DNA of 64,000 bases, from sequence record MF327009. One strand, written 5' to 3'. The DNA is from Shigella phage Sf25. This document shows positions 3,517 to 62,600 of the stretch, piece after piece. The notes under the pieces are model-generated. The model had not been told where the DNA came from and did not search any database. It worked only from the letters and a program-made list of their open reading frames with translations. The first letter of the stretch is position 1; every line of letters begins with the position of its first letter. Position numbers and translations under genes: made by a program.

Positions 3517-4009
3517 TTGTTTTACCTAAAACAACAGTAGGAGCATCATCAAATTCATGAATTTTTAGCAAATTTGGATGTAAACTATTCCATACAGAAG
3601 AAATAAAGTATGATAAAGCATCTTCACTCACAATTATAAATTTATTTCCTTTATCTATTTTCCAACTATATACTGAATCATACGAATAGAAAGATAAAGG
3701 TTTATCATTATAATGTTCTGTGCTAACATTAATGTATTCAGATTTAGTAAATGCTTCAATTGCTCTAAACGGAATATTTGGTACAGTTTCAATAATACCA
3801 ATCTTTTTAAGTTTTATTTCAGCATCTTCTGGAACTGGCATTGAAACAAAATTTTCTACGAGATACATTGGGTCACAATAACCCTTATCAATCATTACTG
3901 CTACGGTAATTGGAACGTCTTTAGCAAACGACATGCTATTACTGCTAATATACATTTCAAACAAAATCGCTTCCATATTTTTCCTCAATCGCAAGATGTA
4001 GATGAACAA
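3491..4009 (-). CDS. hypothetical protein (172 aa)
   Basis: Minus-strand ORF. Confidence 0.45.
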
Positions 4010-4326
4010 CTAGAATCGCAAGAACTTCCACACGAATCGCCCGTCCATACATGAACAGGAACATTAGTGTCATATGAATCAGAACTAGACTGTGTATTCT
4101 GCGTATTAGATGATGTAGTAGGTGTTGACCAGCGCCAAGGATTTTTATAATATTCTTGGGCTTCTTCATAAGTCATAGTAACTGCTTCTACTGTTCCATC
4201 TCCCATATAAACATATTCAACTACAGTTAAAGGAAGGTAGTCATTTGAAATAGGAACTACACCTTCCCCAGGAGTCGTAGAGAAAAAATCCGTAAAGAAA
4301 CTTTTAAACCAATTAAAGATAAACAT
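3985..4326 (-). CDS. hypothetical protein with Cys/Ser-rich C-terminus (113 aa)
   Basis: C-terminal [16 protein letters not shown] tail; start overlaps stop of upstream ORF. Confidence 0.4.
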
Positions 4327-4532
4327 TACAAAAAGCCTCTTTTGAATTCAACTTGTTTATCGCCATAATCATATCGAATCTCTGCATTAAATTCAACAGA
4401 ACCATCTGCGTACATCATAAATGAATGCACAACAACTTCTGTGGACCATGGCTGTAGTTCATATTTCTTCATTACATGTCGTGAAATGATAATATCTAAA
4501 TCTTCATTTGGTTTAATCCAGCGATTTAACAT
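4326..4532 (-). CDS. hypothetical protein (68 aa)
   Basis: Minus-strand ORF preceded by a strong early promoter. Confidence 0.4.
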   Translation of the reverse strand: MLNRWIKPNEDLDIIISRHVMKKYELQPWSTEVVVHSFMMYADGSVEFNAEIRYDYGDKQVEFKRGFL

Positions 4533-4957: not shown

Positions 4958-5720
4958 TTAATAGCCTCGATCTTGACGAGCGAAGTTTTCAGCATTTTTC
5001 AGATAATAAAGTTTAAAGATTTCCTCAGCTGACATTCCAAGAGCAATGAATTTATTCATGAAAAAGTGAAATTGGTCAATCAGTTCAAATTTAATTTCAA
5101 GCTGATCTTCAGGAGATAAGTCTTGAATTTTCTTGGATTGCATTTCAGAATAACGTTTCTTCCAAGGTTTCCATACAGCAGAAGCTTCTTTTTCACCATT
5201 ACTCATACCACCAAGAGAAGTATATAGCTCGCGAGTTTCATCTGCGATATAATCGTCTTGGTTTCGCAACCAAGCAAGAACTTCTCCTGCAGTTTCAAGT
5301 GAATCAGGATGACGATTTGTTTCTGGTTTATCATTAGCCAAACGAATCTGTAAATGCCGCTGCATGTCAAATTTTCTTGGATTGCATTTCAGAATAACGT
5401 TTCTTCCAAGGTTTCCATACAGCAGAAGCTTCTTTTTCACCATTACTCATACCACCAAGAGAAGTATATAGCTCGCGAGTTTCATCTGCGATATAATCGT
5501 CTTGGTTTCGCAACCAAGCAAGAACTTCTCCTGCAGTTTCAAGTGAATCAGGATGACGATTTGTTTCTGGTTTATCATTAGCCAAACGAATCTGTAAATG
5601 CCGCTGCATGTCAAGCATAACCTGCAATGGGTCAATACTGTGCATAATATACTCAGCATATGCACGATTTGCTTTATCAACACCTTCGATCAAATGAGCA
5701 CATTCATTAAAGTGAGCCAT
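4958..5720 (-). pseudogene. 56: gene 56 dCTPase/dUTPase, frameshifted by an internal 244-bp tandem duplication
   Basis: Both ORF pieces (5367-5735 and 4958-5443) carry the same segment; N-terminus MAHFNECAHLIEGVDKANRAY and C-terminus ...KNAENFARQDRGY match T4 gp56; 244 is not a multiple of 3. Confidence 0.7.
5126..5613. repeat. perfect tandem duplication, 2 x 244 bp, inside gene 56
   Basis: 5126-5369 is identical to 5370-5613. Confidence 0.9.
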
Positions 5721-13963: not shown

Positions 13964-14808
13964 TCACCGTTATAATCTTTTTTCACAATATGAGTTTCGC
14001 CAGTATTCCACCAATGATCAACCAAGTAAAAATGACGAGAATATACATGAAGACTTCCAACATTCCATATAATAGAACCTGCTTTATACTGACGAGTTGA
14101 ATCGCCGGCATTCAAATCAGATACTAATTTATCTAATACGTATTTTTGCCATGCATAATCATTACGGAATCCGAAGACCACGTCATTTGAGCGCATGCTT
14201 ACTACTGCATTGACTTTCTTATCACGAATCAGGTACTGTACTGTATTAGTACACATGAAATCTGACATACCATCTTTATTGTAGTCAAATTGCATGGATG
14301 GACGAGTCATGCTTACTACTGCATTGACTTTCTTATCACGAATCAGGTACTGTACTGTATTAGTACACATGAAATCTGACATACCATCTTTATTGTAGTC
14401 AAATTGCATGGATGGACGAGTATAAATCATGATACCACGTCGAGAATCAGGATTTTGACCAAGTTCAGCTAAACACATATCATACTGGGCATAGTTATCT
14501 TCTGACCAAATAGCCCAACCATAATTCGAGTTAATTTCGCCTTTAGAAGATGCTACCTGCTGCCAAATCTTTGGTGTTTCGCCTGGAATATCTTTGACAA
14601 ACAGACTTTGAGACTTGTACCATTCAAGTTCACGCTGAATGTATTCATCATTAAGAGCGCCAAAAATAAAGGGTTCATCTGCTACAAATGATGCGCCAAT
14701 AATTTCAATAGTTTTAACACCGGTTTTATCAACTACGAAATCTTTTTCTTTTAATGCAAGCCCCAAATGAAGACGGATTTCTTCAACTGTCATAAAGTCA
14801 CTAATCAT
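13954..14808 (-). CDS. 42: dCMP hydroxymethylase gp42, with in-frame 38-aa internal duplication
   Basis: 284 aa, 38 more than T4 gp42 (246), exactly the duplicated block SMTRPSMQFDYNKDGMSDFMCTNTVQYLIRDKKVNAVV. Confidence 0.85.
   Translation of the reverse strand: MISDFMTVEEIRLHLGLALKEKDFVVDKTGVKTIEIIGASFVADEPFIFGALNDEYIQRELEWYKSQSLFVKDIPGETPKIWQQVASSKGEINSNYGWAIWSEDNYAQYDMCLAELGQNPDSRRGIMIYTRPSMQFDYNKDGMSDFMCTNTVQYLIRDKKVNAVVSMTRPSMQFDYNKDGMSDFMCTNTVQYLIRDKKVNAVVSMRSNDVVFGFRNDYAWQKYVLDKLVSDLNAGDSTRQYKAGSIIWNVGSLHVYSRHFYLVDHWWNTGETHIVKKDYNGEWK
14194..14421. repeat. perfect tandem duplication, 2 x 114 bp, inside gene 42
   Basis: 14194-14307 is identical to 14308-14421; in-frame. Confidence 0.9.
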
Positions 14809-15860: not shown

Positions 15861-15879
15861 ATCCGTATTAGTTGATAGT

Positions 15880-15913
15880 TGTATAGTACCATGGAAGAAC
15901 AGTCTTGTAAACA
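15880..15913 (-). promoter_or_regulatory. T4-type early promoter
   Basis: gtaaac at 15906-15911 on plus strand plus the conserved ...ggtactatacaactatcaacta -10 block shared with 41812, 43250 and 57937. Confidence 0.5.
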
Positions 15914-15993
15914 GTTTTGTGAAAATTTTTTAGGGAATTCTAAAGGTCCAGAATCATCTGTTTTTCATAAGTATAGATTTATATTACTTGTAT

Positions 15994-16028: not shown

Positions 16029-18872
16029 TCAGCCAAACAGGAAGTCTAACGAAGCTTTTTCTTCATAGTCCATACCAGCCGATTCACACATGCCTGCAAG
16101 CGGTTTAACAAACGATTTTTGGAACAAAGTTGAGTAGTCAATCCAAGACAGTACGTCAGAACGAATTTCTTTTGGAAGTTCTGTACCCGACGGCCAAGCA
16201 ATGCATTTGTCACCAAATGGATTTCCTTCACGCAATGGAAGAACCATTACTTTATTTCCATCCAAAATTGGAGCTACACCTAAACCGCTAACAGCTCGAC
16301 GATAAGTTAGCACACCACGAATATGGAACGGACATTTAAATCCTGGCCAACCTTTATCATCATATTTCGCTATATCGTTCGCAGTTTTTACTTCAGCAAT
16401 AACTTTATAGTCAAGTTGACGATATTCTTTCTCGAAGTTCTTGTAATATTCTTGGACAGACTCTTCACCTTCCTGAAGAATACGACGAATACTTTCTTCG
16501 AGAGCTTCTTGGACCGCTTTAGGCGTTGAACTCTGCTGAGTTTCCATACCCATGATTTTTAGATGCGGTTCAGCAAATCGCTTATCTTCCATATCATATA
16601 CGTTCAGAGCATAACGCTTTTTCGCTTTCCAAAATCCGCCAACGCCCTTTGAACCAAGTGGAGGGCAAGAAATAGCTTCACGGTCCATATGCATCAGATG
16701 CTCGCGGTTATTCATATAATCACATAACTCACGATATGCAACATCAATCATAGGTTCCATCTTTTTCTTACCGAACTGATTCATGAATTCAACTAAATCG
16801 TTCTGCTCTTTGAATCGGTCAAGACCAACTTTTTCAATAACTTTATCTACACAAACATATACCGAATCAGTATCACCTGCTGCAATGAAATCTTCGCCAT
16901 TAGTTCCGCATACTTTATTCAGATATTCATTAATTTTACGAGCAATCCACTGAATACCAACTTGGCCGAAAATTGTGATAGCAGTAGCATTTCGCAAATC
17001 ATAGTAACGGAAATGAATATTACCAAGAGCACCATAAAGACTGTTAATAAGAATTTTACGGTTCAGCTGATTTGTGTTAGCAAGTGTAGCTGCTTTTTCA
17101 CACTCTTCGATCAAACTATTAAGAACAGATTCGGTGTAATTCGATAGTTCATTTAAGAAATCATCACTGAACTTAACATATCGTTCAACTTCTGGTTTAG
17201 TTGAGCAAGACCCTGCGCCTTTCATAATAATCTTTTTAATAGCTTCGGCATTCATTTCTTCAGCGAACATTTTCTTTTTCCAATCTTTACGCTGGAAAAA
17301 TACTTTAGCGATTTCCTTTGGAATGATACCTTCTTGATGCTTATCATACATCCATCCATTCGGAGAACAAGAATATTCATCACTCGGTTTAGGAGCTGTT
17401 CCTGCGATATATTCATGAATTGGATGAACTTTAAACTGACCACGAATAGTCTCAGGACTAATGTTAACCTGACGAATAATGCTCGGATACAGAGACGTCA
17501 AGTCAAAACTCATAATATATCGACGAGCAATTGGTTTAGGTTCAAACACAAATGCACCCGGAAAACTCTGTTTAACGTGCGAACCTTGTTGAGGAATAAC
17601 CTTATGTTCACCTTTCAATGAGTTAAAAATAATAGCATCCCAAGTTTTAATAGGACTCATTACACCGGAAAAAGGCATTTTAGCGTAATAAGACATACTT
17701 AAAACTAGATCGATAAACCCGCGAATTTTATCAATTGCTTGAACTGATTCTACGTCAATGATGTTATAACTAATGTATCGTTGATGATTAGTCTCACGAA
17801 GTTTATTAATAGGACCGTCGTATGGTAATTTACCTTTTTTGGTTTCATGTTGAGCAACTGATTCCAAAGAGAATGACGGCAAATTAGTAAAAGCGAATTT
17901 CTTGTACAAATCTAAATAATCAAGAATAGATACGCCATCAATAGAATAAATTTCTTTGCTGCCGTACATATTTTGAATTAGTTTGGATTTTACCCGACCG
18001 ATTGGAGAGAAACGTTTCATACTGCGTTCGCCTAGAATCATTTTAACACGATTCATGATATATGGAACGTCAAACCCCTCAATATTCCAACCGGTAAAAA
18101 TAGCAGGTCGTTTCTGTTCCCAGAGATTGATATATTCCATGAGCATATCACGCTCATTATCGAATGGCATATAAATTACTCGGTCAAGAATTTCTTGAGG
18201 AACTTCATCACCACCTTCACAGTCAAGCTTAGCAGCTAACTTTGCATCCCATTTTGATACTGAACCGTACATTGAATTCAAAAGGTCGAAAACATAAAAA
18301 CGATCGTCAATTGAATCGTAATGAGTGATAGCATCAATTTCATATTCAGCTTTCATTGGGTCAGGAAATTTATCACCAGTAACCTCAATGTCACAGTTAG
18401 CTACACGAACACCGTACATTGAATTCAAAAGGTCGAAAACATAAAAACGATCGTCAATTGAATCGTAATGAGTGATAGCATCAATTTCATATTCAGCTTT
18501 CATTGGGTCAGGAAATTTATCACCAGTAACCTCAATGTCACAGTTAGCTACACGAACAAATTTTCGGTCATAAACAATTTCTGAACCATATGTATCACTG
18601 ATATAAGCGAGTTTAAAATCGTTCATACCGAGAGCTTCGAGACCGATGTCTTCCATTCGCTTCATCCAATCTCGAGCATCTTTCATTGATGGAAATTTTT
18701 GAGGAGCGCAGTTTTTACCATAGATGTCTTTGTACTTTGACTCTTCCTTACAATGCCTAAACATAGTTGGAAGATATTCTACTTCACGAGTACGTTCCTT
18801 TCCATTTTCATCAATATAACGTTCAACAATATTATTTCCGACTGTTTCAATAGAGATATAAAATTCTTTCAT
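16029..18872 (-). CDS. 43: DNA polymerase gp43 (family B), with in-frame 49-aa internal duplication
   Basis: 947 aa, 49 more than T4 gp43 (898), exactly the duplicated block VRVANCDIEVTGDKFPDPMKAEYEIDAITHYDSIDDRFYVFDLLNSMYG; exonuclease and polymerase motifs present. Confidence 0.9.
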   Translation of the reverse strand: MKEFYISIETVGNNIVERYIDENGKERTREVEYLPTMFRHCKEESKYKDIYGKNCAPQKFPSMKDARDWMKRMEDIGLEALGMNDFKLAYISDTYGSEIVYDRKFVRVANCDIEVTGDKFPDPMKAEYEIDAITHYDSIDDRFYVFDLLNSMYGVRVANCDIEVTGDKFPDPMKAEYEIDAITHYDSIDDRFYVFDLLNSMYGSVSKWDAKLAAKLDCEGGDEVPQEILDRVIYMPFDNERDMLMEYINLWEQKRPAIFTGWNIEGFDVPYIMNRVKMILGERSMKRFSPIGRVKSKLIQNMYGSKEIYSIDGVSILDYLDLYKKFAFTNLPSFSLESVAQHETKKGKLPYDGPINKLRETNHQRYISYNIIDVESVQAIDKIRGFIDLVLSMSYYAKMPFSGVMSPIKTWDAIIFNSLKGEHKVIPQQGSHVKQSFPGAFVFEPKPIARRYIMSFDLTSLYPSIIRQVNISPETIRGQFKVHPIHEYIAGTAPKPSDEYSCSPNGWMYDKHQEGIIPKEIAKVFFQRKDWKKKMFAEEMNAEAIKKIIMKGAGSCSTKPEVERYVKFSDDFLNELSNYTESVLNSLIEECEKAATLANTNQLNRKILINSLYGALGNIHFRYYDLRNATAITIFGQVGIQWIARKINEYLNKVCGTNGEDFIAAGDTDSVYVCVDKVIEKVGLDRFKEQNDLVEFMNQFGKKKMEPMIDVAYRELCDYMNNREHLMHMDREAISCPPLGSKGVGGFWKAKKRYALNVYDMEDKRFAEPHLKIMGMETQQSSTPKAVQEALEESIRRILQEGEESVQEYYKNFEKEYRQLDYKVIAEVKTANDIAKYDDKGWPGFKCPFHIRGVLTYRRAVSGLGVAPILDGNKVMVLPLREGNPFGDKCIAWPSGTELPKEIRSDVLSWIDYSTLFQKSFVKPLAGMCESAGMDYEEKASLDFLFG
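18264..18557. repeat. perfect tandem duplication, 2 x 147 bp, inside gene 43
   Basis: 18264-18410 is identical to 18411-18557; in-frame. Confidence 0.9.
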
Positions 18873-30133: not shown

Positions 30134-30159
30134 ATCAATTCCTCAAAGGTAATTCATAT

Positions 30160-30195
30160 GTTAATAATACCACGGTTTGAACTTGTTGTAAACAA
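30160..30195 (-). promoter_or_regulatory. T4-type early promoter
   Basis: gtaaac at 30188-30193 on plus strand with an upstream A/T-rich tract on minus. Confidence 0.45.
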
Positions 30196-30261
30196 CTTTG
30201 TGAAAAATATTTTAGGGAATGATAAGAAAGGAACGATAGCTTAGAATGGTAATATACAGAA

Positions 30262-30929: not shown

Positions 30930-31400
30930 TTAATCATGTTTCCACACCCCATCGGTATTTGACCAAAGTCGCTGATTATCTGATCCTCGCCACAGCTTTT
31001 TGGTCGGAAGATTTTTCTCATACTTCCCATCAATAATAACATCAACATATTTAAGCATTTCTAGTTGTTTAATATCTTCAAATTTATATCCTGTCCACAA
31101 CCAAATGCTTTTATTGGGATAAAGATTTTTTACTGTTTGAACAATGCAATGAACAACATCTCGGTTATCAGGATAGAGAGGGTCTCCTCCAGTTATAGTT
31201 AATCCTTCTATATAATCATTATTCAAACATTCAATTAATTGTTCTAGTGTTTCACCAGTGAATGGAACACCGTTTCTAGCGTTCCATGTTGATTTATTAT
31301 AACACCCTTCGCATTTATGCAAACAACCTGTAACGAAAAGAACGACCCTGCAACCAGGGCCATTCACAAAATCACAAGGATAAAATCTATCATAATTCAT
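30930..31400 (-). CDS. nrdG: anaerobic ribonucleotide reductase activase NrdG (radical SAM)
   Basis: 156 aa; cysteine cluster CLHKCEGC. Confidence 0.85.
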   Translation of the reverse strand: MNYDRFYPCDFVNGPGCRVVLFVTGCLHKCEGCYNKSTWNARNGVPFTGETLEQLIECLNNDYIEGLTITGGDPLYPDNRDVVHCIVQTVKNLYPNKSIWLWTGYKFEDIKQLEMLKYVDVIIDGKYEKNLPTKKLWRGSDNQRLWSNTDGVWKHD

Positions 31401-31654
31401 TGATGCTTAACCCTATGCATGATTTCTTTATTTTTACCGAGATTAAATCCGCGCTCGTTAGGATTTCCCAAATAACCAACACCCTTCGCATTTATGCAAA
31501 CAACCTGTAACGAAAAGAACGACCCTGCAACCAGGGCCATTCACAAAATCACAAGGATAAAATCTATCATAATTCATTGATGCTTAACCCTATGCATGAT
31601 TTCTTTATTTTTACCGAGATTAAATCCGCGCTCGTTAGGATTTCCCAAATAACC
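31301..31654. repeat. perfect tandem duplication, 2 x 177 bp, spanning the nrdD 3' end, intergenic region and nrdG 5' end
   Basis: 31301-31477 is identical to 31478-31654; leaves a nrdG 5' fragment (ATG at 31577) between intact nrdD and intact nrdG. Confidence 0.9.
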
Positions 31655-37059: not shown

Positions 37060-38361
37060 TTACTTAATTAACTGTAAAGCTTGTTCAAGACGATCAAGAC
37101 GATTAACGGATTCTTCCCAAATCTTTTTAGCACTTTCATATTCTTTTTCTGCTTTATTTTTAATTTCTAAAGCTTCTTTATAAGCTTTTTCTAGTGCAAT
37201 AACTTCTGGACGAATTTCTATTGGCTCAGGAGAATCATCGAGCCAATCCATCAATTCTTCAAGTGTGGTTTCTTCTTTAGGAGCATTCACAATTTCTTCA
37301 CATTTCTTCTGATGAATTTCTTTATCTGTTAGTGAATAAGCACATTTCACTTCACGAAGACTAATTACAATTTTATATCCTTCCCATCCGCATATATTCT
37401 TAAAAGGATATGTATGAATATTTTCTACTGTTTCCATACAAAGTAATGCAGTCTCTAACTGACGAGTTATAGTGCTAGCAATTGAGAAAAATTTATTAAT
37501 ATTCTTTTGGTTAGCGTTTGGTGTAAAAAATCCATAATTCACAAAAATAGCTACTTTATTTTCATCAAGCTCATATTCTAGTGAATAAGCACATTTCACT
37601 TCACGAAGACTAATTACAATTTTATATCCTTCCCATCCGCATATATTCTTAAAAGGATATGTATGAATATTTTCTACTGTTTCCATACAAAGTAATGCAG
37701 TCTCTAACTGACGAGTTATAGTGCTAGCAATTGAGAAAAATTTATTAATATTCTTTTGGTTAGCGTTTGGTGTAAAAAATCCATAATTCACAAAAATAGC
37801 TACTTTATTTTCATCAAGCTCATATTCTTTTACGATAATCATATCAGAAGCCAAAGGATGAATTTGACGATAATCGCCATAACATAATTTAGAAGCTGAT
37901 TTTAGAATTTGTCCTTTGAAAAGTCTGAAATTACTAATCCAACGACGAGTAAAAATATTCTCAGGGTCTTCTTTATTATTAAGATGATAAGAATTAACAT
38001 CACCGAACCAATTATATCCTACTACATCTTTGGTTCGTTTAATTTCTTTCCCAAAATTACCAAGAATATCCCGATTAACCAAATATGAAAGAAGACGAGA
38101 CTCTTTAAAGGTTTTCTTGATATTATCTTTATCTACACGGCTAGAAATTTTACGAATTTCATGAATAAATTTAGTAGAAGAAACAATACTTGCATCAACA
38201 CTATTGAGCCATTGATTGATAATGGAAAGAACGATATTTTGACCAAACATCGGTATAGCTTTATCATCAATAACGCTATTGAATGATTTGATATATTCGT
38301 TACGAGTCATATTAATCTCCTCAGTAGAAAGTAAGAACATTATACCACATCCTTGTGGCAA
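37060..38361 (-). CDS. hypothetical protein with C-terminal coiled coil and in-frame 83-aa internal duplication
   Basis: 433 aa as given; block YELDENKVAIFVNYGFF...REVKCAYSL occurs twice; likely real start MTRNEYIKSF. Confidence 0.45.
   Translation of the reverse strand: MPQGCGIMFLLSTEEINMTRNEYIKSFNSVIDDKAIPMFGQNIVLSIINQWLNSVDASIVSSTKFIHEIRKISSRVDKDNIKKTFKESRLLSYLVNRDILGNFGKEIKRTKDVVGYNWFGDVNSYHLNNKEDPENIFTRRWISNFRLFKGQILKSASKLCYGDYRQIHPLASDMIIVKEYELDENKVAIFVNYGFFTPNANQKNINKFFSIASTITRQLETALLCMETVENIHTYPFKNICGWEGYKIVISLREVKCAYSLEYELDENKVAIFVNYGFFTPNANQKNINKFFSIASTITRQLETALLCMETVENIHTYPFKNICGWEGYKIVISLREVKCAYSLTDKEIHQKKCEEIVNAPKEETTLEELMDWLDDSPEPIEIRPEVIALEKAYKEALEIKNKAEKEYESAKKIWEESVNRLDRLEQALQLIK
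37331..37828. repeat. perfect tandem duplication, 2 x 249 bp
   Basis: 37331-37579 is identical to 37580-37828; in-frame. Confidence 0.9.
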
Positions 38362-38367
38362 AGTAAA

Positions 38368-39642
38368 CTAGTTCAGTGCATTTAGTGCATTGTTCAGTTT
38401 AGAACGTTGCTTCGTGAGATTTTTGACTTTTTCTTGTGCTTTTTCTAGCATCTTTTCAGCTTCTAACACTTCATTGGTCGCTTTAACGAGTTCATCATCT
38501 ACTGCCTTAAGGGACTTCTCAATCGCATCCGCGTGCCATTTTTCAACAGGTTTAAGACTCGGATTTTCAATAGGAAGAAAATTCACTTTATTGAATTTCC
38601 ATGCATCTTTATTACCTGAACTATACATCCAAAATTTAGGATCGTTTGATGAGTAATTGGATAAATTTAAATTTAAGTTATCTTGCACTTCTTGCTTTTT
38701 CTCTTGCGTGACTTCGTCCTTTCTCAAAAAATCGTATTTAAATGAAACGATCATATCAAGTTCATATGTTGTTGTGTCTAATTTAAATCGTTCGAAATGC
38801 TGTGAAATCTTAGACTGAATAGGAAGAAAATTCACTTTATTGAATTTCCATGCATCTTTATTACCTGAACTATACATCCAAAATTTAGGATCGTTTGATG
38901 AGTAATTGGATAAATTTAAATTTAAGTTATCTTGCACTTCTTGCTTTTTCTCTTGCGTGACTTCGTCCTTTCTCAAAAAATCGTATTTAAATGAAACGAT
39001 CATATCAAGTTCATATGTTGTTGTGTCTAATTTAAATCGTTCGAAATGCTGTGAAATCTTAGACTGAACAGCAGCAACAACATCCATATACTTAAATGCT
39101 TCTGTCAACTGTGATTTAAGACATTCGCAAATTGAAAGAGAATTTTTTGTATTAGGTTTAAAGCTAATTCGTGCAGTTCTATTATTTTCTTTTAATGGTC
39201 TTACTTCCATCTGAAGAGTATAACCATCAAATTTCAGGTTCTTTAAGTTAATATCAGAACCTTTTAATCGACTCGCAGTTGATAAAATTTGCTTTAATTG
39301 TCTACGGAATAGAGCAATAAATCTCCATTCAATACGATAATGATTTGGATTGAAAAATCCAGATGATAAATCGACCTTACTTTGACCAACGCCTTGAACA
39401 AATAGAGGATTTTTATAATCAATAGTTTTACAGAAATCGGTTAGCTGCTCACGAGCAGTCATTTGTGTAATATACCCCGCTTTACTAAAATGACGTAACC
39501 ATTCACTGCTATTCATATATTTAAAGTGAATATCACGATTAACTTTATCAGGGTCTAAATTATTTTGGCACAAAAATGTCATAACATCACGAGTATAGCT
39601 GGCATTACGAATCATATCTTCAATTTGAGAACGAGTTTTCAT
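38368..39642 (-). CDS. hypothetical protein with C-terminal coiled coil and in-frame 83-aa internal duplication
   Basis: 424 aa as given; block ...SKISQHFERFKLDTTTYELDMIVSFKYDF...KVNFLP occurs twice. Confidence 0.45.
   Translation of the reverse strand: MKTRSQIEDMIRNASYTRDVMTFLCQNNLDPDKVNRDIHFKYMNSSEWLRHFSKAGYITQMTAREQLTDFCKTIDYKNPLFVQGVGQSKVDLSSGFFNPNHYRIEWRFIALFRRQLKQILSTASRLKGSDINLKNLKFDGYTLQMEVRPLKENNRTARISFKPNTKNSLSICECLKSQLTEAFKYMDVVAAVQSKISQHFERFKLDTTTYELDMIVSFKYDFLRKDEVTQEKKQEVQDNLNLNLSNYSSNDPKFWMYSSGNKDAWKFNKVNFLPIQSKISQHFERFKLDTTTYELDMIVSFKYDFLRKDEVTQEKKQEVQDNLNLNLSNYSSNDPKFWMYSSGNKDAWKFNKVNFLPIENPSLKPVEKWHADAIEKSLKAVDDELVKATNEVLEAEKMLEKAQEKVKNLTKQRSKLNNALNALN
38569..39066. repeat. 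perfect tandem duplication, 2 x 249 bp
   Basis: 38569-38817 is identical to 38818-39066; in-frame. Confidence 0.9.
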
Positions 39643-39650
39643 GGTGTTCC

Positions 39651-40808
39651 TTAAGATTTAAGTAAATCAACAATTTTAATTAACTTTTCACGCTCGGATT
39701 TAGCTTTACTACTCAGTCCAGATAGTCTGAAAATTTCATCATCATATTGTTGAATAGAAATATTCAGCTCTTCAATCTGTTTATTAAAATAATCAATTTG
39801 TTCAGAATGTTTTTCGTTACTACGAACTGGTACAGGTTTTGTAGGCAATTTAGTTGAACTGGATTCATCCGGGCGATAAATTAAAATACAACTTGAACCA
39901 ATAGGGCATTTTGCACCAGATGAATATTCTAATGTTCCAGCTTCTTTTAAAACTTCAAAAGCTAAACAGAGATGATGCCCCATATTAACATAATCTGTAG
40001 AGTGAGCTCTGATCAGCTCTTCAATCTGTTTATTAAAATAATCAATTTGTTCAGAATGTTTTTCGTTACTACGAACTGGTACAGGTTTTGTAGGCAATTT
40101 AGTTGAACTGGATTCATCCGGGCGATAAATTAAAATACAACTTGAACCAATAGGGCATTTTGCACCAGATGAATATTCTAATGTTCCAGCTTCTTTTAAA
40201 ACTTCAAAAGCTAAACAGAGATGATGCCCCATATTAACATAATCTGTAGAGTGAGCTCTGATGTAATAATCATCTCCACGAATACTAAATTTAAAGCATT
40301 TAAGGTCTTCTGTATTATTGGTCTTAAAAATCATTTGTTTATCTAGACCTTTAGCTAATCGAGCGCCTAATGCTAATAATCGTCGTTGATTTTCCCACAA
40401 ATCCGCAATCATTTGATCGAATGATAATTTCGGCATTAGTCGACCATAAAGGTCATATCCTTTATTATAATTGCGAAGGATTTCACTCGCATTAATACGA
40501 GACAACGCTCCAATTTTATTAAGGGCTTTCATGATGCGATTAGATAAACCCATTCCAGACCCGTTTGTTCGTTGTAAATGTTTATCTAATCCAAACCCAA
40601 TATCAACTTTAAATTTATCTAAAATTTCAGCATGAACATCTCTGTCAATAACATTCAAATCCAAAGTTTGGTTAAATCTATGAAAAAATTTATCTGGCTC
40701 TCCACGACGAAGTACAGTCCATTCATTCAATTTTTTATTAACTAAAGATTTAATTACTGCATTGACATTATTAATTACTACTGACATATTTTCCTCACTC
40801 AATTTCAA
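39651..40808 (-). CDS. hypothetical protein with C-terminal coiled coil and in-frame 83-aa internal duplication
   Basis: 385 aa as given; block RAHSTDYVNMGHHLCLAFEVLKEAGT...NKQIEEL occurs twice. Confidence 0.45.
   Translation of the reverse strand: MKLSEENMSVVINNVNAVIKSLVNKKLNEWTVLRRGEPDKFFHRFNQTLDLNVIDRDVHAEILDKFKVDIGFGLDKHLQRTNGSGMGLSNRIMKALNKIGALSRINASEILRNYNKGYDLYGRLMPKLSFDQMIADLWENQRRLLALGARLAKGLDKQMIFKTNNTEDLKCFKFSIRGDDYYIRAHSTDYVNMGHHLCLAFEVLKEAGTLEYSSGAKCPIGSSCILIYRPDESSSTKLPTKPVPVRSNEKHSEQIDYFNKQIEELIRAHSTDYVNMGHHLCLAFEVLKEAGTLEYSSGAKCPIGSSCILIYRPDESSSTKLPTKPVPVRSNEKHSEQIDYFNKQIEELNISIQQYDDEIFRLSGLSSKAKSEREKLIKIVDLLKS
39765..40262. repeat. perfect tandem duplication, 2 x 249 bp
   Basis: 39765-40013 is identical to 40014-40262; in-frame. 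Confidence 0.9.
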
Positions 40809-41785: not shown

Positions 41786-41811
41786 TTTCTGTTCCTCCGT
41801 AGTTGATAGTT

Positions 41812-41845
41812 GTATAGTACCACAGAGGAACAGTCTTGTAAACCA
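41812..41845 (-). promoter_or_regulatory. T4-type early promoter
   Basis: gtaaac at 41838-41843 on plus strand plus the conserved -10 block. Confidence 0.5.
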
Positions 41846-42160
41846 CTAAAAGAAACTTCTTTCACAATTTTTTCCACTGAACCATGCACTTACCGCTTTC
41901 TTAGTCTCAGGAGCAGTGTTATCCATAAACCATTCAAAGGCAGCCTTTTTATGATTCTGGAGGGCTTCTCGGGCTTTAATCTGCTCACGGTCTATTAACA
42001 CTAACATATGAGCCTTTCTTGTCACCATGGGCTTCTTATGATTTTTTGAATACTCCCAGTCATTTGTCCATCGCATTGTCGTTGCGAACTGAAATACTGC
42101 TTCTTTAATTTTAGTTTCGTAAATTTCACGAGCCTTTGAGTATAACATCATTACCTCCAT
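41846..42160 (-). CDS. hypothetical protein (104 aa)
   Basis: Minus-strand ORF. Confidence 0.4.
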   Translation of the reverse strand: MEVMMLYSKAREIYETKIKEAVFQFATTMRWTNDWEYSKNHKKPMVTRKAHMLVLIDREQIKAREALQNHKKAAFEWFMDNTAPETKKAVSAWFSGKNCERSFF

Positions 42161-42249: not shown

Positions 42250-43284
42250 TTATTTCAGAAGAGTAACCTCAGCAATTTCTTCCCAACCGTTTTTGTCGGT
42301 CATAATAAAGTCAGCAAGATAAAGAGCAGTACGCAGTGAAACATTGCGTAAACGATTAACATTAACTTTCATCCATGATAATGCTTTATAAGTTTCTTCA
42401 TCAGAAAGACCGCGCTTTTGCATCATGTCAGTTGAAAGAATAACATCTTCAACCCTGACCATAATTTCTTCATTAGTGTGAACACCCAAATCTAAATAAA
42501 CCGAGCGGGACACTAATGCTTGTAAATGTGGAGCAAGTTTAGTACCACGGTCTAATTCGCGGTCAATGTCAACGTTTGTGATAAAAACAATCGTTCCTTT
42601 AAATTCAAACTCACGCTCAATGCCTTTTTCTTCTAAGTAAGAAGACGCAGTGCTCCAGCAGACTTTACGGGTCTCTCCAGTGTCCAGAGCGGCTTTTAGA
42701 AGATTAAGAATGTCCATATCAGAGAAAACATCCACATCATCAATCAAAAGGACAGAATTCTCTTCACGATTATTCCAAAGCTGTTCATAAAGACCGATAC
42801 CAGAGATTTTACCATTAATGCTTTTATATTCAATGTATCCAATATCATTTGCTTTATTTAAAGCTTTATCTAAAGAATACGTTTTACCAATACCTGCTGC
42901 ACCAGAGATAATTAATGAACGAATGTTTCCGTTAATAATACCATTCGTCATCATTCCCATAACATTAAATCTTTTATTAATGCGGGTTTTCATATCTTCA
43001 TACGATTCTTTAACTTCTTCAACTTTTACACCATCATATGAAATGTCTGATTTGTAAACCCAAACACCGCGACGCTTACCGTCAATTTCAACAAAAACTT
43101 TACCATCTCCTTGCGCATCTACTGGAGCATTATCAGGGAACCACTCACCTAAGAGTTCAAAAGTTCCAGAGATTTCTTTGCCAAAGTAGATACCCTTATT
43201 GATAGTTACAGTTTTCATTTTATTCTCCAAATCCGCATCAGTTGATAGTTGTATAGTACCATAAAGCTTTATGCTTGTAAACAA
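42250..43284 (-). CDS. P-loop NTPase (344 aa)
   Basis: Walker A GAAGIGKTYS and Walker B-like VLLIDDVD; about 110-aa N-terminal extension of unknown fold. Confidence 0.5.
   Translation of the reverse strand: MFTSIKLYGTIQLSTDADLENKMKTVTINKGIYFGKEISGTFELLGEWFPDNAPVDAQGDGKVFVEIDGKRRGVWVYKSDISYDGVKVEEVKESYEDMKTRINKRFNVMGMMTNGIINGNIRSLIISGAAGIGKTYSLDKALNKANDIGYIEYKSINGKISGIGLYEQLWNNREENSVLLIDDVDVFSDMDILNLLKAALDTGETRKVCWSTASSYLEEKGIEREFEFKGTIVFITNVDIDRELDRGTKLAPHLQALVSRSVYLDLGVHTNEEIMVRVEDVILSTDMMQKRGLSDEETYKALSWMKVNVNRLRNVSLRTALYLADFIMTDKNGWEEIAEVTLLK
43250..43284 (-). promoter_or_regulatory. T4-type early promoter
   Basis: gtaaac at 43277-43282 on plus strand plus the conserved -10 block; just upstream of the ATPase ATG. 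Confidence 0.5.
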
Positions 43285-43304
43285 CTTTGTGAAAAAATTT
43301 TGAA

Positions 43305-57631: not shown

Positions 57632-57958
57632 TTATTTCATATTATTGAAATATTCTTCTGCGATTTCGTCGTTATCATGGTAAACTTTAGAAGACAGTTT
57701 AACATAACCTTCTGCCGTGAACATATTAATCACAACCTTTACAGTATACCACTGACCATCTTCATTACCCATTACTGCGTAAGTTTCAAACATCGGATGA
57801 TCAGGACCGATAACTTTAATATCATTCACTGTACGACCAAAATCTTCTGAAACACATTTCATAAAGAAGTTGAACAGTTCGCCGTAATTATCCATTTCAT
57901 TCTCCAAGTTGTTTTCTGTATCAGTAGTTGATAGTTGTATAGTACCATGGAAGGACAA
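57632..57958 (-). CDS. hypothetical acidic protein (108 aa)
   Basis: Minus-strand ORF with early promoter upstream. Confidence 0.4.
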   Translation of the reverse strand: MSFHGTIQLSTTDTENNLENEMDNYGELFNFFMKCVSEDFGRTVNDIKVIGPDHPMFETYAVMGNEDGQWYTVKVVINMFTAEGYVKLSSKVYHDNDEIAEEYFNNMK

Positions 57959-57969
57959 GGATGTAAACC
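57937..57969 (-). promoter_or_regulatory. T4-type early promoter
   Basis: gtaaac at 57963-57968 on plus strand plus the conserved -10 block. Confidence 0.5.
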
Positions 57970-58099
57970 GTTTTGTGAAAAAATTTTTTAAAAAGTTTTA
58001 GGGAATTCTAGGGCAGGGAGGGGCAATTAAAAGATAGGATAATATATTATAAAGGGTATAAACTAAATGATGCCTAGAGAGGCCCGGAAAGGCCTAGAT

Positions 58100-58137: not shown

Positions 58138-58611
58138 TTATTTGATTTGTTTAGCAGACCAAATGCGGTCTTTAATAATTTTTTGGATGTCTTCAACATA
58201 TTCAAGAGAGTGAACATGTGGGTTATCTTTGAAACTATAAGCACGAGCTAGCTTTTGGCCTTCAGTTTTGATTACTAAAAGCTCTTTAAGGATAGCTTCA
58301 TATTTGGAGATAATTCCTTTAACGATATTTTTCTCTTGTGTGACTTTAGGATCTGCTTTAGGAGCAGGTTTATCTGAAGCCTTTGCAAAAGCAGCTCCAG
58401 TAGCAACTAAACTTTTCCAAGCCATACTAACTGCATTCCCTGTAAATCCTTCGGCTTTCATATCACGAGCAAATTGGAATCGTGATTCATCGGAAGCATC
58501 TTTATAGGAATATTTACCCGCGGCAATGGCTGCTTTTGCGACAGCTTGAATTTCGGTGCTAGATGCTTCATTTAGCACCGCTTCATTTAAAAATTGAGCA
58601 TATGATTTCAT
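58138..58611 (-). CDS. internal-protein-like capsid-packaged protein with CTS leader
   Basis: N-terminus MKSYAQFLNEAVLNE (CTS-like); preceded by late promoter TATAAATA and RBS; Ala/Lys-rich. Confidence 0.5.
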   Translation of the reverse strand: MKSYAQFLNEAVLNEASSTEIQAVAKAAIAAGKYSYKDASDESRFQFARDMKAEGFTGNAVSMAWKSLVATGAAFAKASDKPAPKADPKVTQEKNIVKGIISKYEAILKELLVIKTEGQKLARAYSFKDNPHVHSLEYVEDIQKIIKDRIWSAKQIK

Positions 58612-58651: not shown

Positions 58652-58659
58652 TATTTATA
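58652..58659 (-). promoter_or_regulatory. T4 late promoter TATAAATA
   Basis: plus-strand tatttata immediately after the terminator on minus, about 40 nt upstream of the ATG at 58611. Confidence 0.5.
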
Positions 58660-59285: not shown

Positions 59286-59362
<77 letters not shown>

Positions 59363-59366
59363 TATT

Positions 59367-59441
59367 TGGCGGACATGCATGGATTCGAACCATGGACCAA
59401 TTGATTAACAGTCAACTGCTCTACCACTGAGCTACACATCC
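59367..59441 (-). tRNA. tRNA-Asn (anticodon GUU)
   Basis: Anticodon loop CUGUUAA (same as E. coli tRNA-Asn), T-arm GGTTCGAATCC, encoded CCA. Confidence 0.65.
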
Positions 59442-59445
59442 AAAT

Positions 59446-59532
59446 TGGTGGGGAGTGATGGAGTCGAACCACCCGAGTCGCAATGACAATGAATTTACAG
59501 TCCACACCGCTACCTCTACGGGATAACTCCCC
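59446..59532 (-). tRNA. tRNA-Tyr (anticodon GUA), class II with long variable arm
   Basis: Anticodon loop CUGUAAA and 13-nt variable arm, overall close to the E. coli tRNA-Tyr layout; encoded CCA. Confidence 0.6.
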
Positions 59533-59544
59533 TAATTCATAATT

Positions 59545-59619
59545 TGGTGGCCCTGGGTGGAATTGAACCACCATCTGGCGATTATGAGTCGCTTGCTTGA
59601 ACCTTCCAGCTACAGGGCC
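59545..59619 (-). tRNA. tRNA with CAU anticodon (Ile-lysidine type as in T4, or Met)
   Basis: Anticodon loop CUCAUAA; acceptor GGCCCTG/CAGGGCC; encoded CCA. Confidence 0.6.
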
Positions 59620-59620
59620 T

Positions 59621-59696
59621 TGGTGCTGATTGACGGAATCGAACCGCCGACCTTCTCATTACAAGTGAGTTGCTCTACCTACTGAGCTAAATCAGC
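59621..59696 (-). tRNA. tRNA-Thr (anticodon UGU)
   Basis: Anticodon loop CUUGUAA; T-arm GGTTCGATTCC; encoded CCA. Confidence 0.7.
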
Positions 59697-59701
59697 AAAA
59701 C

Positions 59702-59791
59702 TGGCGGAGGCGATAGGATTTGAACCTATGAGTCGCCGGAGCGACTGCCGGTTTTCAAGACCGGTGCATTAAACCACTCTGCCACGCCTCC
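59702..59791 (-). tRNA. tRNA-Ser (anticodon UGA), class II
   Basis: Anticodon loop CUUGAAA, long variable arm, encoded CCA. Confidence 0.7.
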
Positions 59792-59793
59792 AG

Positions 59794-59867
59794 TCTCCAT
59801 ACAAGGATTTGAACCTTGGACCTCCTGATCCCAAATCAGGCGCTCTACCAAACTGAGCTACACGGAG
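59794..59867 (-). tRNA. tRNA-Pro (anticodon UGG), CCA not encoded
   Basis: Anticodon loop UUUGGGA; abuts tRNA-Ser with a 2-nt spacer (dimeric precursor arrangement known in T4). Confidence 0.65.
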
Positions 59868-59877
59868 TAAATTAAAT

Positions 59878-59951
<74 letters not shown>

Positions 59952-59956
59952 AAATT

Positions 59957-60042
59957 TGGTGCGAGAAGTGGGACTCGAACCCACAAGGAAATCATTCCGC
60001 AGCATTTTAAGTGCTGTGCCAACTTGGCTAATTCCCAATTAT
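59957..60042 (-). pseudogene. chimeric tRNA remnant: 3' two-thirds of tRNA-Leu(UAA) fused to a 5' segment that looks like the start of tRNA-Gln
   Basis: Intact Leu anticodon arm (CUUAAAA), long variable arm, T-arm and acceptor 3' strand TTCTCGC-A-CCA, but the 5' side reads TTGGGAATTAGCCAAGTTGGCA, which cannot pair with the acceptor 3' strand and resembles a tRNA-Gln 5' end. Confidence 0.5.
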
Positions 60043-61354: not shown

Positions 61355-61562
61355 TTAAACCAATTAAAAATGCTACTACAAGTGAAAATACATTTTCTGC
61401 TGTAGTTAATAATCCGCATATAAATCCAACAAACATTGAAAAACTAAAAGCGGAAGCAGAAATTGCAATAGCAACATTTCGAATTAATTCACAACGTTTC
61501 ATTTTATTCTCCTCAGTAGTTGATAGGGTAATAGTATCACTACTAAAACCCCGTGTAAACAA
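61317..61562 (-). CDS. small membrane protein (81 aa)
   Basis: Hydrophobic C-terminal half. Confidence 0.4.
   Translation of the reverse strand: MFTRGFSSDTITLSTTEENKMKRCELIRNVAIAISASAFSFSMFVGFICGLLTTAENVFSLVVAFLIGLIAIVMDKISKGE
61528..61562 (-). promoter_or_regulatory. T4-type early promoter
   Basis: gtaaac at 61556-61561 on plus strand; near-duplicate of the promoter at 61860-61892. Confidence 0.45.
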
Positions 61563-61572
61563 CTTTGTGAAA

Positions 61573-61830
61573 TTATTTTAAATCTTCTAATCGTTTCTTC
61601 ATCTTAGAACCATTTTTAGCGATTTCTCCTGCGTCAGAGCATAATGCTAAAAGTGCTTTAACTTTAGTTTGGTCTCCTTTAAAAGACGAAGGATCGACTG
61701 CAGCAGCAAGTTCTTTAATACGAGAGAAAAGACGCTCAGCTTCGGCTAAAGCCATTCCAAGCTTTACTTCCATACCATGAGAAGATTCAGTGATAATAGT
61801 TTCTGTAGCAAACTCTTTATAAGTTTTCAT
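61573..61830 (-). CDS. internal-protein-like protein with CTS leader (ipI-locus position)
   Basis: N-terminus MKTYKEFATETIITES; located just upstream of 57B where T4 has ipI. Confidence 0.5.
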   Translation of the reverse strand: MKTYKEFATETIITESSHGMEVKLGMALAEAERLFSRIKELAAAVDPSSFKGDQTKVKALLALCSDAGEIAKNGSKMKKRLEDLK

Positions 61831-61859
61831 TTTATTTTTCCTAATTAATTTTGATGAGG

Positions 61860-61892
61860 TAATAGTATCACTACCTCATCAGTGTGTAAACA
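61860..61892 (-). promoter_or_regulatory. T4-type early promoter
   Basis: gtaaac at 61886-61891 on plus strand. Confidence 0.45.
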
Positions 61893-61903
61893 ACTTTGTG
61901 AAA

Positions 61904-62600
<697 letters not shown>

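Follow-up and report, generated by a model that had tools for sequence, protein, structure and literature searches.

The tRNA-like element at positions 59957-60038 of the stretch of Shigella phage Sf25 DNA analyzed here (64,000 nucleotides; the window) is a hybrid tRNA gene, in which the 5' part of tRNA-Gln is joined to the 3' part of the neighboring tRNA-Leu in the same orientation. The hybrid is a true string in the window, but it is most likely an artefact of contig joining rather than a feature of the phage. The loss of the DNA between its two parts is more likely to have occurred in the record than in the phage because the window contains 12 other anomalous junctions, two of which (in genes 56 and 62) are lethal frameshifts.

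The window is a segment of a Tequatrovirus (T4-like) genome, and many T4-like phages are approximately 96% identical to a 24-kb stretch of it. Its tRNA cluster is located on the minus strand at 59286-60038, where ARAGORN identifies nine tRNA genes: Leu(taa), Gly, Pro, Ser, Thr, Met(cat), Tyr, Asn and Arg. The eight genes downstream of the chimera (Gly, Pro, Ser, Thr, Met(CAT), Tyr, Asn and Arg; minus strand, 59286-59951) are intact in the ARAGORN output, and seven of them score 59.9-72.9 bits with the Rfam tRNA model. Shigella phage Sf24 is 99.7% identical to the window over 1.2 kb around the cluster, and approximately 1.8 kb of flanking sequence differs between the two by one substitution only (at 59427; 99.9% identity). 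This substitution affects nucleotide 15 of tRNA-Asn, for which the window has G15, the canonical partner of C48, and Sf24 has A15; several other relatives likewise do not match the window here. In Sf24, Kha5h and T4 the cluster starts with tRNA-Gln, followed directly by tRNA-Leu. The anticodon stem of tRNA-Gln exists as two alleles, CUGGA/UCCAG (Sf24; locus L001, 683-705) and UAGCA/UGCUA (T4 and Kha5h; loci L003 and L002), which differ by compensatory changes and have the anticodon UUG in common; the tRNA-Gln remnant of the window ends before this allele-distinguishing stem.

Read along the minus strand, positions 60037-60019 (TGGGAATTAGCCAAGTTGG) are identical to nucleotides 1-19 of tRNA-Gln, and positions 60020-59957 (GGCACAGCAC...CTTCTCGCACCA) are identical to the last 64 nucleotides of tRNA-Leu(UAA) in Sf24, Kha5h and T4. 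The two matches overlap by the GG at 60019-60020, which is common to both parents and constitutes the sole microhomology at the join (prefix/suffix comparison with Sf24: 19 + 64 − 81 = 2 nucleotides of overlap). On either side of it lie nucleotides 1-17 of tRNA-Gln (TGGGAATTAGCCAAGTT; minus strand, 60021-60037) and the tRNA-Leu(UAA)-derived part (minus strand, 59957-60018), which matches the Leu genes of Sf24, Kha5h and T4 exactly and comprises the anticodon arm (TAA at 60009-60007), the long variable arm, the T arm (GGTTCGAGTCC), the 3' acceptor strand TTCTCGC, A73 and CCA. After nucleotides 1-19 of Gln, the Leu sequence runs from (GG)CACAGCAC to CCA (Leu nucleotides 24-87). Alignment reveals that exactly 80 nucleotides, which encode the anticodon and T arms of Gln and nucleotides 1-23 of Leu, are missing in the window and are kept in Sf24, Kha5h, T4 and seven other relatives. 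With flanks of approximately 1.8 kb that differ from Sf24 by a single substitution, the chimera cannot be put down to chance similarity.

These comparisons bear out the preliminary description in its main points, namely the fusion of a Gln 5' end to a Leu body, with both parts identical to the parent genes of Sf24, Kha5h and T4, and the intactness of the Leu anticodon arm, variable arm, T arm and CCA, which match T4 and Sf24 without change. Alignment to the T4 genes likewise returned 19 identical nucleotides of Gln and 64 of Leu, with 80 nucleotides absent. The Gln-derived part had been given as 26 nucleotides, a figure that should be corrected to 19-20.

The Gln and Leu genes share a near-identical block of 12/13 nucleotides, TTGGTAA(A)GGCAC, at the site of the join. 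The join is 5-6 nucleotides out of register with this block, from which TAA(A)GG has been removed, and in-register homologous recombination between Gln and Leu is thereby ruled out. A scan for a sigma-70 promoter or terminator made or lost by the junction gave nothing above the shuffled expectation. Separately, a MotA-box reading of the upstream leader was dropped, as the box is not conserved in T4.

A query of 76 nucleotides across the tRNA junction was matched contiguously by none of 50,697 phage records in an E-value-filtered BLAST search; with the same filter, a neighboring 76-mer used as a control matched 511 records. Both halves of the query are present in at least 439 records (Tequatrovirus with the Gln-Leu pair), none of which has the junction, and among the 15 matches listed the span is 156 nucleotides, placing the halves 80 nucleotides apart. 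The exact junction strings were not found in viral, genome or metagenome contig collections, and the chimera was not found in ten loci that encode an identical 171-residue protein upstream of the cluster: eight of these have intact Gln and Leu genes, one is without the whole cluster and one has an ORF with a weak HNH match replacing Gln.

Comparison of the whole window with Sf24 places the tRNA junction among 13 junctions in 64 kb, comprising eight perfect (100%), exactly two-copy tandem duplications of 114-249 nucleotides that Sf24 lacks, and five clean deletions ranging from 80 to 156 nucleotides, the tRNA junction included. The duplications are 2 × 208 nucleotides at 2238-2653 (ModB/ModA.2 region), 2 × 244 at 5126-5613 (gene 56, dCTPase, with a frameshift), 2 × 114 at 14194-14421 (gene 42), 2 × 147 at 18264-18557 (gene 43, DNA polymerase), 2 × 177 at 31301-31654 (nrdG/nrdD boundary) and three of 2 × 249 at 37330-37827, 38569-39066 and 39764-40261 (homologues of nrdC.4, nrdC.5 and nrdC.6). 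The other deletions have removed 156 nucleotides between 1417 and 1418, inside the ModA homologue; 139 between 19617 and 19618, inside gene 62 (clamp loader), with a frameshift; 145 between 46830 and 46831, including the C-terminus of the MobD.6 homologue; and, between 58904 and 58905, 1116 nucleotides from the tRNA junction, approximately 83 that are present in Sf24 and other relatives. Microhomology at the five deletions amounts to 0, 0, 0, 1 and 2 nucleotides. With AR1 as a second reference, the three 249-nucleotide duplications and the 145-nucleotide deletion, which are those within the AR1-covered stretch, recur; for the 58904 and tRNA junctions, every other relative with sequence across the site (up to ten further loci) shows the same discrepancy. 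The NrdC.5-like protein with the duplication has no counterpart on record, and a search with a normal protein pointed to AR1 only, which is free of the anomalies. An origin of the window segments as copies of different known phages is ruled out, since the segments are only 97-98% identical to any record.

In tblastn searches with Sf24 proteins, gp56 (dCTPase) is split across two reading frames by the 244-nucleotide duplication, gp62 (clamp loader) has lost residues 118-164 and continues in another frame, and gp42, gp43 and NrdC.4-6 contain internal repeats of 38-83 residues. The gene 56 and gene 62 junctions were not found in any phage record searched. Genes 56 and 62 are essential in T4 and both are broken here; therefore, the record cannot represent a viable genome.

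The junctions also share a distance. At 12 of the 26 junction sides, a difference from Sf24 is exactly 248 or 249 nucleotides away, against an aggregate background of approximately 0.7 per distance; the length of the tandem duplications tops out at 249 nucleotides; and the 58904 junction is exactly 248 nucleotides past the resumption of Sf24 homology at 58657. Breakpoints at a set distance from a SNP are not biological, and are what read-length- or k-limited assembly produces. The tRNA junction itself has no Sf24 difference at ±248/249 nucleotides, which counts against the artefact and in favor of a genuine deletion. Positions 59771 and 60268, at which other relatives vary, are each 248 nucleotides from the junction when it is placed between 60019 and 60020; this match is weak, with an estimated probability by chance of approximately 0.05, and the same relatives also carry variants nearer to the junction. 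Site 59153/4, which the 248/249-nucleotide rule predicts, is not polymorphic in the relatives. Finally, the window and the Sf24 record end on the same base in the alignment, which together with the 99.9% identity of the flanks hints at reference-guided construction.

With 13 artefactual junctions in 64 kb set against none in at least 439 natural Gln-Leu pairs, we consider it probable that the hybrid gene arose in assembly, and unlikely that the phage itself carries the deletion. The anomalies, their conflict with viability, the regularity at 248/249 nucleotides and the uniqueness of the junctions are observed; a particular assembly scenario and the membership of the tRNA junction in the same class as the others are what we infer. 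In this scenario, the window would be a computationally stitched sequence, for which a sample of closely related T4-like strains would have yielded contigs or graph unitigs that were laid end to end, each extending only about one read or k-mer length (~250) beyond the last strain-distinguishing variant. Where neighbors overlapped, the overlap would have been kept twice, unmerged, giving perfect tandem duplications of up to 249 nucleotides; where a short intervening piece was dropped and its neighbors abutted, clean deletions of 80-156 nucleotides would result. The 80 nucleotides between Gln nucleotide 19 and Leu nucleotide 24 would be one such gap, and the true genome would have intact tRNA-Gln and tRNA-Leu genes, like its relatives. 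Consistent with an artefact, the junction is unique to the record and is accompanied by junctions that break essential genes, the tRNA loss (80 nucleotides) is in the size class of the other deletions (83-156 nucleotides), and the join bypasses the available 12/13-nucleotide homology that homology-driven recombination would have used. Two observations weigh against it, in addition to the missing Sf24 variant: the tRNA region is dispensable, so a real deletion at this site would be tolerated, unlike the lesions in genes 56 and 62, and natural loss of tRNA-Gln is seen in one relative (L015).

The principal alternative is a genuine 80-bp deletion in the phage, which would have fused nucleotides 1-19 of Gln to nucleotides 24-87 of Leu by illegitimate joining at the GG microhomology or by replication slippage, possibly after a SegB-type break. 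We regard this as unlikely. Natural losses of individual tRNA genes, or of the cluster as a whole, occur among the relatives, and hybrid tRNA genes produced by deletions in the T4 cluster are, reportedly, a published phenomenon. Each tRNA gene, Gln and Leu included, is a SegB target at its 3' end, with cleavage preferentially after CCAR (PMC2330249), and a site of this type (after CCAG at the Gln 3' end; ...TTCCCAG/CGCGAG) lies inside the missing 80 nucleotides; the tRNA genes are non-essential and the tRNA region is dispensable (PMC2330249). Against these points, the 64 kb contain 12 further junctions of this kind that are demonstrably non-biological, no example occurs in the Tequatrovirus records with the Gln-Leu pair, the available homology was avoided, and a tblastn search for a SegB homologue, as the source of the break, detected none in the 64-kb window. 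The preliminary description had proposed a deletion between adjacent Gln and Leu genes: the exact 80-nucleotide loss matches that proposal, but the 12 other anomalous junctions make it doubtful that the event took place in a phage. For a real deletion, the most likely origin would be a double-strand break followed by illegitimate joining. The more specific version, in which a SegB-type break at the Gln CCAG site was repaired through microhomology in a natural Tequatrovirus that expresses a cloverleaf-like RNA with a 3-nucleotide D-loop from its tRNA operon, is more doubtful still.

Whether or not it exists in a phage, the chimera can be folded in silico, and both RNAfold and ARAGORN draw a predicted four-armed cloverleaf for it. 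The acceptor strands TTGGGAA and TTCTCGC face each other as U.C (1-72), U.G, G-C, G.U, G-C, A-U and A-U, such that six of the seven positions are paired, two of them as wobbles, and a 7-bp stem with a 1-72 pair is not formed; the acceptor helix given by RNAfold has 5-6 bp. The statement that the 5' end cannot pair with the 3' acceptor strand was thus too strong. ARAGORN builds the 5' acceptor strand and a miniature D-arm, GCCA-AGU-UGGC, from the Gln-derived part plus T60038 (Gln position −1); this D-arm has a 4-bp stem, a 3-nucleotide loop and no free GG. The D-loop residues G18G19 and A20a are missing, and the linker between positions 8 and 9 is 3 nucleotides long (UUA) versus the canonical 2. 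The program still makes a weak call of tRNA-Leu(taa) here: the D-arm is stunted, 1-72 is unpaired and the anticodon is at position 30 versus 33-35, and the call vanishes when the thresholds are raised to 110%. With the Rfam tRNA model (RF00005) the chimera scores 32.2 bits, marginally over the gathering score of 29, compared with 59.3 bits for Leu and 67.4 bits for Gln in the intact Sf24 genes.

Leucylation by the E. coli LeuRS requires elements of the D-loop and T-loop, including G18G19 and A20a, whereas the anticodon and variable arms are dispensable (PMC9976931). In T4, tRNAs whose structure is disrupted are processed less by RNase P and give a lower yield (PMC11143913). As the modeled chimera has lost G18G19 and A20a and has no 1-72 pair, and as LeuRS needs the D/T-loop contacts, it would, if expressed, very probably be a non-functional, non-chargeable pseudo-tRNA, in agreement with the non-functional product anticipated from the sequence at the outset. 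A functional, selected tRNA-Leu(UAA) variant with a minimal D-arm, for instance one that evades a host tRNA-targeting nuclease, is highly improbable: the predicted cloverleaf, with its four arms, 6-bp acceptor helix, unaltered anticodon arm, A73 and CCA, and scores above the ARAGORN default and Rfam gathering thresholds, are outweighed by its absence from every other genome searched, the loss of D-loop elements essential to the E. coli enzyme, the 1-72 mismatch and 3-nucleotide 8-9 linker, the processing penalty that disrupted tRNAs incur in T4, and the fact that the event, if real, must be very recent, because the flanks are near-identical to Sf24.

As an artefact, the junction is mainly a warning: the window contains at least 13 stitching errors, and such errors presumably run across the whole record. 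The tandem repeats, the frameshifts in genes 56 and 62 and the pseudo-tRNA would then all be spurious and would mislead any annotation, tRNA census or repeat analysis based on the record. If the deletion is real, tRNA-Gln(UUG) and tRNA-Leu(UAA) are both lost and an uncharged chimeric RNA would be transcribed with the cluster, a modest addition to knowledge, namely a hybrid tRNA gene that occurs in nature and costs the phage two dispensable tRNAs. Were the SegB-break reading true, the hybrid would be the natural counterpart of the laboratory T4 hybrids, and homing endonucleases would erode tRNA genes as well as spread them.

The region around the tRNA cluster varies among the relatives in several further respects. 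In L015, an ORF of 202 residues with a weak HNH match (1860-2487) replaces tRNA-Gln, of which only the first 7 nucleotides are left; in AR1 (L008), a GIY-YIG/NUMOD3 ORF (3847-4497) takes the place of tRNA-Pro; and in L007 (4064-4546) and L011 (4066-4548), an ORF of 160 residues without a Pfam match replaces tRNA-Thr. One relative contig (L010) is without the whole tRNA cluster, and some relatives add a tRNA-His. In the window, a minus-strand ORF of 157 residues without a Pfam match (58138-58611) separates the tRNA cluster from the e.8-like gene; Sf24 lacks it, and a gene for 157 residues is present in L006-L008, L011 and L012. The window also contains a dispersed family of 63-69-nucleotide repeats, at 15869-15931, 30150-30212, 41800-41862, 43239-43301, 57925-57987, 61517-61588 and 61851-61919, which on the minus strand contain GTTTACA ... 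TGGTACTATAC and which we take to resemble the early promoters and promoter-stem-loop modules of T4-like phages.

Four known systems provide points of comparison. The first is the T4-type Gln(UUG)/Leu(UAA) pair, which forms a dimeric precursor: the chimera retains 19 nucleotides of the Gln 5' end, 64 nucleotides of the Leu 3' end, the upstream leader and the spacing to tRNA-Gly, but it lacks 80 nucleotides, its anticodon is at position 30 rather than 35, and its Rfam score is 32 bits as opposed to 59-67. The second is the set of hybrid tRNA genes in deletion mutants of phage T4 that McClain and Foss are said to have described in 1984; those hybrids reportedly formed through unequal recombination between homologous stretches and were confirmed in the DNA of the phages. 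The window resembles them in that two tRNA genes of the same T4-type cluster are fused, 5' portion to 3' portion, with loss of the intervening DNA; it differs from them in that its join is out of register, with GG as the only shared sequence, and is known from the sequence record alone. The third is the replacement of tRNA genes by homing-endonuclease ORFs in Tequatrovirus, which likewise shows that single tRNA genes are lost in nature, although in those cases an ORF is inserted, the neighboring tRNA is intact and no chimera is formed. The fourth is the stitched draft assembly, with untrimmed overlaps and unfilled gaps, which the window matches in its two-copy repeats capped at 249 nucleotides, its clean small deletions, its breakpoints at a fixed distance and its broken essential genes, and from which it departs in that the tRNA junction itself has no fixed-distance match to an Sf24 variant.
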